A stretch of 7,079 nt of DNA from Escherichia coli (GTDB taxonomy: Bacteria; Pseudomonadota; Gammaproteobacteria; Enterobacterales; Enterobacteriaceae), in NCBI RefSeq assembly GCF_003334305.1, contig NZ_QOWS01000048.1; one strand, given 5' to 3'. Under the pieces are notes generated by a model. The model saw only the letters and a program-made list of their open reading frames with translations, did not search any database and was not told where the DNA came from. The position numbers and the translations under genes are program-made. Shown one piece after another: positions 3,652-6,279 of this stretch (positions are counted from its first letter, which is position 1; every line of letters begins with the position of its first letter).

Positions 3652-4596
3652 ATGGTAATGAAGAATATCGAGACAAAATGGTTATACGATTTCCTGACAC
3701 TGGAAGCCTGTCGCCATTTTTCTCAGGCGGCAAAAGAGCGTAATCTTTCGCAACCCGCATTCAGCCGACGAATTAAGGCGCTGGAGGCAGCGATCGGCGT
3801 TGTTTTATTCGATCGCACGACCACCCCTTTACAATTAACCGAAGAGGGCAAGCTCTTTCATTCCCAGACTCGCAGCTTATTACAGCAGCTTGAATGCAAT
3901 TTGGGGGAGTTAAACGGCCAGAGTTTACTCGGCGTTCCCAACATTAAAATTGCAGCCGCGCACTCACTATCCCTGAGCGTATTACCCAAACTGGTGCATT
4001 CACTTACCGCCTATGGCGGAGAATTTGTCTATCATGTTGAAGCCATTGATGTTGTCCAGGCCGTAAATACGTTACGCGAAGGCAAGAGTGACTTTATTAT
4101 TTCGTTTCGCGATGAAGATCTTATGCAATCGCCTTTTTGCTGCCTGAAACTGTTTGAATCTGAGTTGTACCCGGTATGTGCCGCCGACGCACAGGGGCAC
4201 CCTGTATTCGATATCACTCAGCCCCAGGTTCCTTTGCTCAACTATACCGCCACATCTTATATGGGCAGGTTGGTCAATCGTCATCTGGCAGAGGTTGGAG
4301 GTATTACCGGGCGCACGATATTTATCTCTTCGATGAGCGAGTTATTAAAGAATATGGCGCTCAACGGATACGGCATTGCCTGGTTACCGATCTGGTCGAT
4401 CGTCGATGAACTACAGACCAAACGTCTGATATGCCTTGATGCTGCTAAATTGACAGTCCCCATTCAGGCTTATATTTACCGAATGAACACCCGACTGAAT
4501 AGAACCGCCGAGAACCTCTGGCGTATTTTACAGGAACATATGCCAGACGATTTAATCCAGCAGATATCAATGGAAGAGCCAGCATGCCGCAATTGA
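3652..4596 (+). CDS. LysR-family transcriptional regulator (LTTR), YjiE/HypT-like; true start more likely the ATG at 3658
   Basis: N-terminal winged-HTH region (...LEACRHFSQAAKERNLSQPAFSRRIKALEAAIGVVLFDR...) followed by a LysR-type substrate-binding domain. The N-terminus resembles what I recall of E. coli YjiE (...NIETKWLYDFLTLE...). An AGGTG Shine-Dalgarno at 3645-3649 sits 8 nt before the ATG at 3658 but only 2 nt before the ATG at 3652. Confidence 0.9.
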   Translation: MVMKNIETKWLYDFLTLEACRHFSQAAKERNLSQPAFSRRIKALEAAIGVVLFDRTTTPLQLTEEGKLFHSQTRSLLQQLECNLGELNGQSLLGVPNIKIAAAHSLSLSVLPKLVHSLTAYGGEFVYHVEAIDVVQAVNTLREGKSDFIISFRDEDLMQSPFCCLKLFESELYPVCAADAQGHPVFDITQPQVPLLNYTATSYMGRLVNRHLAEVGGITGRTIFISSMSELLKNMALNGYGIAWLPIWSIVDELQTKRLICLDAAKLTVPIQAYIYRMNTRLNRTAENLWRILQEHMPDDLIQQISMEEPACRN

Positions 4597-4613
4597 CGAC
4601 GTGCAATAAATAT

Positions 4614-4637
4614 CCTCCGGCATAGCCGGAGGTTTTT
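4614..4637 (+). terminator. GC-rich hairpin plus T5 tract 18 bp downstream of the lysR stop (probably the IS200 right-end hairpin)
   Basis: CCTCCGGC-ATA-GCCGGAGG perfect stem (4614-4632) followed by TTTTT (4633-4637) has the form of an intrinsic terminator for plus-strand transcripts. By my boundary estimate it lies inside the IS200 right end. Confidence 0.6.
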
Positions 4638-4713
4638 CAAATGCGCCTATAAGGCTCTCTTACCAGCCGCGCCCTAACAGGCGCACACGATCTGACATTT
4701 GCATCCAACTTCG

Positions 4714-5173
4714 TTACTTACGGTCCGTAAACGGGCTGCCCGGACAGGGAATCGATAACTGCTCTCCCATTTTATCCTCTTCAAGCTGGTGCTTTATGTA
4801 ATCCTGTATCTTCGCCGTGTTCTTACCCACTGTATCGACGTAGTCCCCCCTGCACCAGAACTCCCTGTTCCTGTATTTGAATTTCAAATCACCAAACTGC
4901 TCGTAAAGCATCAGACTGCTTTTCCCTTTCAGATATCCCATAAACCCGGATACGCTCATTTTGGGCGGGATCTCCACAAGCATATGGATATGATCTGCAC
5001 AGCATTCAGCTTCCAGAATCCGTACGCTTTTCCACTCACACAGCTTTCTCAAAATACTGCCTGTTGCTCTACGCTTCTCTCTGTAGAACACCTGTCTTCG
5101 GTATTTTGGCGCAAAAAACTATGTGATATTTACAGTTCCATCGGGTGTGCGCTAAGCTCTTTTCGTTCCCCAT
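4714..5173 (-). pseudogene. tnpA: IS200 transposase tnpA (Y1/HuH), apparently frameshifted
   Basis: ATG at 5173 (minus) opens MGNEKSLAHTRWNCKYHIVF, then the frame changes at a T6 run (plus A6 at 5113-5118). The remainder ...FAPKYRRQVFYREKRRATGSILRKLCEWKSVRILEAECCADHIHMLVEIPPKMS...FWCRGDYVDTVGKNTAKIQDYIKHQLEEDKMGEQLSIPCPGSPFTDRK* is in another frame (six-frame ORF 4714-5091). The intact IS200 TnpA as I recall it reads through ...KYHIVFAPKYRRQ..., so this copy appears to carry one extra T. Confidence 0.75.
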
Positions 5174-5179
5174 TGGGAC

Positions 5180-5249
5180 CCCCTTTTGATTTCTTGTTTG
5201 ACACTTGCAGTTGCCAGACCGCAAGGTGTTTTAACAAATCAAAAGGGGT
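5180..5249 (-). promoter_or_regulatory. IS200 5'UTR stem-loop that sequesters the tnpA ribosome-binding site
   Basis: Perfect 13-bp inverted repeat: CCCCUUUUGAUUU pairs with AAAUCAAAAGGGG across a ~44-nt loop on the minus-strand transcript. The 3' arm contains the AAGGGGG Shine-Dalgarno just upstream of the AUG at 5173. Matches the described IS200 nt 69-138 structure. Confidence 0.7.
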
Positions 5250-5283
5250 TTTAATAACTGGCTCAAAGCTGAAAGCTTTCCGG

Positions 5284-5306
5284 AACCCCCAGCCTAGCTG
5301 GGAGTT
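5284..5306 (-). promoter_or_regulatory. IS200 left-end hairpin (described as blocking read-in transcription)
   Basis: Minus-strand AACTCCCAGC-TAG-GCTGGGGGTT forms a 10-bp stem (one G.U pair) with a 3-nt loop, 23 nt in total, at the position expected for the IS200 nt 12-34 hairpin. Confidence 0.55.
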
Positions 5307-5316
5307 TTCTGTGCAC

Positions 5317-5344
5317 AAAAAAACCCTGTAAAAAACTTACAGGG
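5317..5344 (-). terminator. Perfect palindrome plus T7 tract (minus-strand intrinsic terminator) abutting the IS200 left end
   Basis: Minus strand reads CCCTGTAA-GTTTT-TTACAGGG followed by TTTTTTT (plus 5324-5344 stem-loop, plus 5317-5323 A7): an 8-bp perfect stem with a U-tract. Confidence 0.55.
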
Positions 5345-5942
5345 GTATAAGGCTTAGCCTAACTTGCGTCTGTTGCATGGTGCCGGGTGCCTCCCGGTGA
5401 ATTCAGTCGGTGTCACTGAACCCGCGTAGGCTTCGCTCATAACATAATAAATGCTATGTACACCAGTCGCCCCACCGCACAGGGGGATTCACCACACGGC
5501 GCACTTTTTAACAAATATCCCTCCGGCCAGACAATAATAAACATAATGAATTGTGATCTTCTTAACAGTTTTAAAGTGTTACAGATAACATGCCAAGTAA
5601 TTGCTTGTTTTTTCATCAATAGGAAGACCACACCAACAACCCCAGCTATCAGCCAGAACCGACATTATCCGGCTGATAAAATCTACCATCACTCCAACAC
5701 CAATCACCGCCTGTGCCAGATCGCGTTTCTCAAACTTTTTAATCTCTGTTGCCACTCTGCGGGTTTTCTTTTTGAATTTTGAAAATACCAAATATCGTGA
5801 CGTTTCTTTGGGGGATGAGCTATCAAGCGGGAACGATCTGCCTACAGAGAAAGTCAGCCAGACCACTCTGCAAATTATCCCCGAAAGGCTCTGTGGCTGA
5901 TATGCGCCGGGCATGGCGCAATGGGCCAGTGGCAGTGTGTGA

Positions 5943-6015
5943 TGGTGGCCCTTACTGGATTTGAACCAGCGACCAAGCGATTATGAGTCCTCTTACCACT
6001 GAGCTAAAGGGTTGG
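5943..6015 (-). tRNA. Degenerate tRNA(CAU)-like sequence resembling tRNA-Ile2 (ileX/ileY-like); probable pseudogene or attachment-site relic
   Basis: Minus strand reads AACCCTTTAGCTCAGTGGTAAGAGGACTCATAATCGCTTGGTCGCTGGTTCAAATCCAGTAAGGGCCACCA. The T-arm, variable loop, CTCATAA anticodon loop (CAT) and 3' acceptor-CCA are recognisable and resemble E. coli tRNA-Ile2 as I recall it. However ~5 nt are missing at the D-stem/anticodon-stem junction, and the first two acceptor-stem positions (AA instead of GG) cannot pair with the 3' strand. Confidence 0.55.
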
Positions 6016-6279
6016 AGAACGCAATATCACCTGTCTTATATGATTACACCCAGAATTTCCCGGACTGTCTTGTCAAAACATTCAGTCTCCAATTCCCACC
6101 AATAGCAAGACGGTCACTATGACAGCATCTCCGGAATGAGCTCAGGGCACGGGGGTTTACCGAGGTTACTTTTCCAACGAAGTTTCTCAAACGCAGGCGT
6201 GACAGATAACATTCAAACTTAGGATCTCAGTTGCTATCTTTTCCCATGTCTTACGGATTAATGTCATCGGTTGCATACA

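Follow-up and report, generated by a model that had tools for sequence, protein, structure and literature searches.

An IS200 element directly after the predicted terminator of a prophage STnc100-family sRNA gene in Escherichia coli

Mobile elements that insert next to terminators

Terminator-like stem-loops are an old proposal for where IS200 and IS1541 elements insert. For IS1541, Odaert et al. (1998) reportedly saw them at 8 of 14 sites and suggested that they act as hot spots. Another group of elements with this habit is that of the bacterial class C group II introns. Their homing sites reportedly lie directly behind the stem-loop of an intrinsic terminator, with the orientation fixed (Robart, Seo & Zimmerly 2007). 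These introns are like IS200 in being mobile, in lying just after terminator stem-loops, and in keeping a fixed orientation. However, the introns are retroelements and depend on RNA-DNA pairing and a reverse transcriptase, whereas IS200, a DNA element, has an HUH Y1 transposase. A genome-wide view comes from a preprint in which terminator-like sequences were over-represented upstream of ISs, most strongly upstream of IS200/IS605 (bioRxiv 10.1101/2025.07.22.666184).

The published anatomy of IS200 is that of a 707-bp element with two inverted repeats, the left-end repeat at nt 12-34 and another at nt 69-138 (PMC4513863). Like IS608 and ISDra2, IS200 has no terminal inverted repeats, produces no target duplication, inserts 3' of a short sequence, and does so in a fixed orientation. 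Another shared property is the presence of subterminal hairpins at both ends, with a guide 5' of the hairpin foot that is complementary to the cleavage site (PMC6006769). The targets differ, however. IS608 and ISDra2 use defined sequences (TTAC, TTGAT) and are not known to require a hairpin beside them, whereas the target of IS200 is a degenerate T-run after a hairpin. In IS200/IS605 elements TnpA binds the subterminal hairpins, and the guides set the cleavage sites by pairing, at the left end with the flanking target and at the right end with the final bases of the element (PMC6006769).

The second known component of the locus described here is STnc100 (RF02076), an Hfq-associated family. STnc100 is a prophage-encoded sRNA related to PasD and is typical of Stx/lambdoid phages (bioRxiv 10.64898/2026.05.13.724894). 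The DNA analyzed, referred to as the window, is a 7,079-nucleotide stretch of an E. coli genome (GCF_003334305.1, contig NZ_QOWS01000048.1). It contains a palindrome and a T-run at 5317-5344 next to the left end of an IS200 copy. The locus is very probably the terminator of an STnc100 gene in a decayed lambdoid late region, with IS200 integrated after the last T in the same orientation. All of its parts are of known kinds, namely an intrinsic terminator, an sRNA family of Rfam, and IS200, and the locus is an ordinary example of their combination. The features are listed in Table 1.

Table 1. Coordinates of the features around the IS200 left end in the window.
Feature	Coordinates	Strand	Basis or remark
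tnpA (Y1 transposase), frameshifted	4714..5173	-	RefSeq 'IS200/IS605 family transposase, frameshifted'; alignment to intact 711-bp copy
IS200 (IS200C-like), 712 bp	4605..5316	-	left nt 1 = 5316, right last nt = 4605
IS200 right-end subterminal hairpin, CCTCCGGC-TAT-GCCGGAGG	4614..4632	.	scan, copy comparison, right-end motif
STnc490 match, IS200 tnpA 5'UTR / art200 region	5183..5306	-	Rfam RF01405, 143 bits
IS200 internal left-end inverted repeat (nt 12-34), own bidirectional terminator, presumed TnpA-binding hairpin	5283..5305	-	sequence, PMC4513863
T7 (U7) tract of predicted terminator, also T-rich IS200 joining target	5317..5323	-	scan, STnc100 model, flank consensus
Predicted terminator stem-loop, arms 5344-5337 CCCTGTAA and 5331-5324 TTACAGGG, loop 5336-5332	5324..5344	-	terminator scan, fold, STnc100 model
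STnc100-family prophage sRNA gene, predicted	5317..5527	-	Rfam RF02076; terminator at equal model position in lambdoid/Stx phage homologues
Degraded prophage tRNA-Ile (CAU anticodon type)	5943..6013	-	Rfam tRNA 30.7 bits, match 6013-5946

The hairpin and T-run

The plus strand reads AAAAAAA at 5317-5323, CCCTGTAA at 5324-5331, AAAAC at 5332-5336, and TTACAGGG at 5337-5344. In other words, the minus strand reads CCCTGTAA-GTTTT-TTACAGGG-TTTTTTT and continues directly into GTGCACAGAA, which is nt 1-10 of IS200 with nt 1 at 5316. The stem is a perfect 8 bp, the loop is 5 nt, and T7 follows directly. The sequence thus bears out an earlier note on this DNA, made from the sequence alone, which had described an 8-bp perfect stem and a T7 tract on the minus strand. 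A consensus scan found a minus-strand terminator-like site at 5344..5324 with 9 pairs, including one G-T, followed by TTTTTTTGTG. The sequence has the features expected of an intrinsic terminator: a stem of 8-9 bp with 4 G-C pairs, a loop of 3-5 nt, and T7. The same scan placed five terminator-like sites in 4500-6100 compared to 1.4 +/- 1.1 in shuffled sequence. One of them lies on the plus strand at 5288-5302, within the IS200 left-end repeat.

Taken alone, the hairpin is unusual to a moderate degree only. A 46-nt RNA containing it folds at -12.9 kcal/mol (z = -2.4), and 6 of 200 shuffles were equally stable. This modest z-score is the one point in favor of a palindrome that arose by chance or of a REP-like element, but such an origin is extremely improbable. 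Chance is taken as excluded because the position of the hairpin matches two independent expectations described below, the terminator of the STnc100 model and the flank pattern of IS200 left ends. The REP-like sequence suggested in the earlier note does not hold up either. The hairpin sequence occurs at this locus only and has no further copies in the genome, hence it is not a REP, and every one of 388 records matched the stretch 5317-5373 at the IS200-linked locus and nowhere else, unlike a REP or BIME.

An STnc100-family sRNA gene in a prophage remnant

What does the hairpin terminate? Three Rfam matches in the window exceeded their gathering scores: STnc100, STnc490, and a weak tRNA. The STnc100 match runs from 5527 to 5313 on the minus strand, scores 136.4 bits (gathering score 47), and covers model positions 1-206 of 206. 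Its final 4 nt (GUGC, 5316-5313) are really nt 1-4 of IS200. In the alignment, the terminal hairpin and UUU of the model coincide with the window hairpin and its U-tract, which by this model places the hairpin at the 3' terminus of the predicted RNA on the minus strand, where an intrinsic terminator would lie. Judged from sequence, the palindrome and T7 are the predicted Rho-independent terminator of an STnc100-family sRNA gene at ~5527-5317 on the minus strand.

Further evidence comes from the neighborhood. In intact prophages the genes follow one another on one strand in the order Q antiterminator, tRNA-Ile/Lys/Arg, TerB, DUF3927, STnc100, holin, and lysozyme. Window positions 5374-6011 are colinear with the lambdoid late region of intact prophages and of phage Evi, and the STnc100 core is 92-93% identical to its counterparts in intact prophages. 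The remainder of the late region is decayed. DUF3927 and TerB are present only as fragments, and the tRNA-Ile, 88% identical to an intact prophage copy, has lost 5 nt of its anticodon arm. ARAGORN accepted no tRNA at this pseudo-tRNA. Neither RNA gene of the 5374-6013 remnant (tRNA-Ile, STnc100) is annotated by RefSeq.

The earlier note had considered an orphan terminator of a minus-strand gene that once lay upstream. The terminator part of that claim agrees with the predicted sRNA gene. The orphan part does not, since the gene is STnc100 at 5527-5313 and is still present. An orphan terminator of a lost protein-coding gene is improbable even though its prophage neighbors have decayed (fragments of DUF3927 and TerB, a pseudo-tRNA), because a complete STnc100 match ends exactly here and intact prophages carry STnc100 after DUF3927 in the same order and orientation. 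The lack of a coding sequence in 5345-5940 is explained because the minus-strand gene there, STnc100, is non-coding. For annotation, this means that the apparently empty region 5317-5527 holds a gene of a known sRNA family with its predicted terminator.

The terminator of the family appears, from sequence comparison, to be conserved in position and variable in stem sequence. The STnc100 copies of phage PhiR5_2 end in AGCCCCUCUCCGGAGGGGCU-UUU at the equal model position. This phage carries a tandem STnc100 pair about 280 bp apart (positions 681-890 and 1166-1359 of its record), each with a GC-rich terminator. Three other homologues (L002, L005, L127) had no alignable terminator at that model position. 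The window copy is thus like known STnc100 genes in its full-length model match, its lambdoid late-region neighborhood, and the position of the terminal hairpin and U-tract. It differs in that its terminator stem (CCCUGUAA and UUACAGGG) and 3' 57 nt are unique, its host prophage is a remnant, and the sRNA is predicted. In all 388 E. coli records and 16 metagenome contigs that contain it, the unique 3' part (5317-5373, 57 nt including the hairpin) adjoined IS200. The STnc100 homologues of phages and prophages could be aligned only from about 5355-5373 onward.

The IS200 copy and its ends

The window element has the properties of the IS200 group: a length of 712 bp, a single tnpA, a left-end hairpin at 5305-5283, and the STnc490 match of 143 bits. 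The tnpA gene is inactivated by an additional T in the T-run at 5113-5118, hence the length of 712 bp rather than 711. Compared to the intact copy there is also a C-to-T change at nt 14 (5303), which introduces a G-T wobble in the left-end hairpin. As judged from these changes, the window copy is probably immobile on its own.

Where exactly does IS200 begin and end? The similarity of other E. coli IS200 (IS200C) copies to the window always starts at 4605 and stops at about 5318-5330. That the left limit falls within or just past the A-run is expected if the other copies also abut T-runs. More direct evidence came from a sister IS200 in strain CNREC_004-43, located after the guaA terminator, where AAAACCCTCTGTTACTACAGAGGGTTTTTT is joined to GTGCAC. 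The joined guaA flanks matched strain ST2747 at 300 of 300 positions in one piece, which is a perfect empty site. This query, made of the flanks only, was covered to at least 80% in 4463 genomes. At this sister site IS200 is the 711-bp sequence GTGCAC...ATATTTATT, inserted precisely and with no duplication or loss. The sister copy has no terminal inverted repeats. The position of the window hairpin immediately outside the left end, which the earlier note had proposed, follows from these ends and from the similarity limits. Thus IS200 occupies exactly 4605-5316.

One alternative is that the hairpin and T7 are part of IS200 itself, as a left-end terminator or within a longer element variant. IS200 is known for a terminator hairpin near its left end (PMC4513863), and the 57-nt flank was never seen without IS200. 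However, the documented hairpin is nt 12-34, and the published anatomy fits nt 1 at 5316, which puts that hairpin at 5305-5283 and makes it another structure. Furthermore, other copies carry unrelated hairpins at the position in question, the guaA empty site sets nt 1 as the G of GTGCAC, and the window hairpin aligns to the STnc100 model. The alternative is highly improbable, and the hairpin was rejected as an IS200 component on the basis of the similarity limits, the unrelated hairpins, and the guaA empty site.

At the right end, the subterminal hairpin is followed on the tnpA strand by ATATTTATT and the end of the IS. On the plus strand it is followed by TTTTT and resembles a terminator of hypT, the neighboring LysR gene. 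The IS end at 4605 lies 8 nt past the hypT stop codon (4594-4596). The apparent hypT terminator (CCTCCGGCATAGCCGGAGG and TTTTT) is part of the IS200 right end, within 4605-4632. For annotation, the hairpin at 4614-4632 belongs to the IS and not to hypT, and hypT now probably relies on IS200 for termination.

Age of the insertion

The arrangement hypT-IS200-STnc100 was present in 219 complete genomes. No empty site was found at the window junction, which was filled in all 201 E. coli genomes with both flanks and in the joined-flank queries. The flank-only query found no IS200-free STnc100 3' part among the 388 E. coli records. Exact-pattern scans for the flank gave 0 matches in viral contigs and 16 in metagenome contigs, all filled. 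The junction copies vary among themselves, with A7 or A6C and several left-end variants. The window insertion appears to be old and inherited because there is no empty site and the junction copies differ. With the junction filled everywhere, the state before insertion, namely the hairpin and T7 before IS200 arrived and the hypT-side flank as the original neighbor, was not recovered.

Two candidate empty sites were not informative. Strain 219 has hypT without a full IS200, but there the left end of the IS was replaced by a CMY-2 insertion. From window position 5241 on, this strain instead carries a T2SS/T4SS ATPase fragment and blaCMY-2, and its IS200 is truncated. In strain M6 the hypT allele is divergent and other DNA lies downstream.

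IS200 left ends in other genomes

The earlier note had proposed a comparison with other IS200 sites. Further E. coli copies were found after the dgcZ terminator and, in strain 19KM2326N, inside the coding sequence of mdtP. The left end in mdtP still follows a hairpin (CTGGCCA...TGGCCAG) and TTTGATT. A scan for the left-end hairpin motif in one genome per species gave 120 loci, and 90 nt upstream of each were examined. The loci came from Yersinia pestis, Vibrio ruber and other vibrios, Brenneria, Budvicia, Pluralibacter, Edwardsiella, and Oxalobacter, and also from Mailhella/Desulfovibrio, Bacillota, Peptococcaceae, Elusimicrobia, and Saccharibacteria MAGs.

Nearly all copies were preceded by a G+C-rich hairpin, different from copy to copy, and then a T-run up to the IS, in the form hairpin-TTTTTT/GT(G/A) with the slash at the junction. 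Of 117 unique flanks, 80% had a perfect stem (5 bp or more, with 3 or more G-C) whose end lay no farther than 12 nt from the IS, compared to 13% of random positions and 15% of T-rich positions at the same loci. The last 45 nt folded at -10 kcal/mol or lower in 98% of 122 unique flanks, E. coli flanks included (random 32%, T-rich 25%). The mean folding energy of these 45 nt was -18.5 kcal/mol in the flanks, -8.4 at random positions, and -7.4 at T-rich positions (flanks versus T-rich controls, Mann-Whitney p = 3e-60). The last seven bases of the 117 unique flanks had the consensus TTTTNTT, in which -5 and -2 were almost invariant. The gap between hairpin and IS in RNAfold structures is blurred by upstream A-runs pairing with the T-tract and is not evidence for a fixed spacing. 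Only a few flanks were weakly structured (L031, L119).

Among flanks with enough upstream sequence, a long ORF upstream of the IS was co-oriented in 64 (ending a median of 60 nt before the IS), an ORF was divergent in 24, and 14 had neither (binomial p = 2e-5). The last class includes tRNA 3' ends and, at the window locus, the predicted sRNA. At the other end of the element, the hairpin pattern located 56 right ends, and 55 of them had the motif GAAAAA, hairpin, and ATATTTATT.

The comparison thus came out strongly in favor of the insertion-target reading, with a stable hairpin and a T-rich tract at 98% of the 122 unique left-end flanks. The window flank, CCCTGTAAGTTTTTTACAGGG-TTTTTTT joined to G, is typical of this class. 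The terminator reading and the insertion-target reading, which the earlier note had set against each other, both hold and are not really alternatives. The locus is also like the reported IS200/IS1541 cases, since its left end abuts a hairpin and T-tract downstream of a co-oriented gene, but the terminator in the window is that of a predicted sRNA rather than an mRNA. Compared to those reports, the survey gives a far higher frequency (98% of 122), single-nucleotide precision, and several phyla. It therefore supports the old proposal of terminator stem-loops as IS200/IS1541 hot spots and sharpens it in extent, single-base precision, and phylogenetic breadth, with no new kind of system. In the survey, the left end of IS200 pinpoints an intrinsic terminator to the single base, even across very distant bacteria. 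Such marking can help to set IS200 boundaries, which are hard to place without inverted repeats or duplications.

Head-to-tail pairs of IS200/IS1541 were also observed, in Y. pestis NCTC5923 (L071, L073) and at L070, L087, and L117, with junctions of the form ...GGAGGATATTTATT joined to GTGCCCAGAA.... Such pairs arose either when an element inserted behind the right-end hairpin of a copy already there or when a tandem junction integrated.

Targeting of terminators or selection for harmless sites

How does IS200 come to lie after terminators? IS200 usually lies 3' of a hairpin and its closing T-rich run. By analogy with IS608, TnpA may integrate the element as a single-stranded circle, joined 3' of a short target to which the left-end guide pairs. 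The IS200 sequence 5' of the left-end hairpin is A-rich (..CAGAAAA), which would fit a T-rich target, and the GAAAAA 5' of the right-end hairpin together with the ATATTTATT terminus would likewise fit a T-rich cleavage site. The right end of IS200 consists of a hairpin and 9 T-rich nt, so that a terminator resembles a right end. The target hairpin may be recognized itself, or it may merely aid in exposing the T-tract in single-stranded DNA.

An alternative is that a short T-rich target suffices and that only neutral, silent copies after terminators persist. The target consensus is indeed T-rich, a few flanks (L031, L119) are weakly structured, and the family is known for tetra- or penta-nucleotide targets (PMC6006769). 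Upstream terminators have also been read as limiting transposase expression (bioRxiv 10.1101/2025.07.22.666184). However, comparable structure was present at 98% of insertion sites but at only 25% of the T-rich controls from these loci, and the spacing is exact and the orientation fixed. Selection for a terminator is not expected within mdtP, yet the copy there follows a hairpin and TTTGATT. Tandem copies, moreover, join a left end directly to the right-end hairpin and ATATTTATT of another copy. Selection without targeting is unlikely on these grounds, and the T-rich control and the intragenic mdtP case argue that a T-run alone is not sufficient as a target. Nevertheless, the genome surveys are consistent both with hairpin targeting and with a T-rich target plus purifying selection.

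A wider model can be put forward tentatively, as possible but short of an even chance. It states that IS200-group elements are terminator-homing transposons, in which TnpA or the single-stranded integration step recognizes a generic hairpin and ~7 T-rich nt as a mimic of the element's own right end, with intrinsic terminators as obligatory landing pads. If true, terminators of any gene would serve as pads in Proteobacteria, Bacillota, Desulfovibrionia, and Saccharibacteria alike, and IS200 would be the DNA-transposon counterpart of class C group II introns. The model would also explain the harmless persistence of a nearly immobile IS.

Consequences at the window locus

For the reading of the window as IS200 integrated after an STnc100 terminator, several consequences can be read from the sequence. 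The U7 is preserved, and the predicted STnc100 terminator remains intact. It would shield IS200 from read-through, beside the element's own terminator at nt 12-34. No gene is disrupted, and an insertion harmless to the host would help the element to persist.

At the left of the window, an ORF resembling orfB of an IS3-family transposase is present at 268-981. The IS3-like ORF, IS200, and the prophage remnant together suggest that the racemase, C4-dicarboxylate transporter, and hypT genes lie in a mosaic accessory island.
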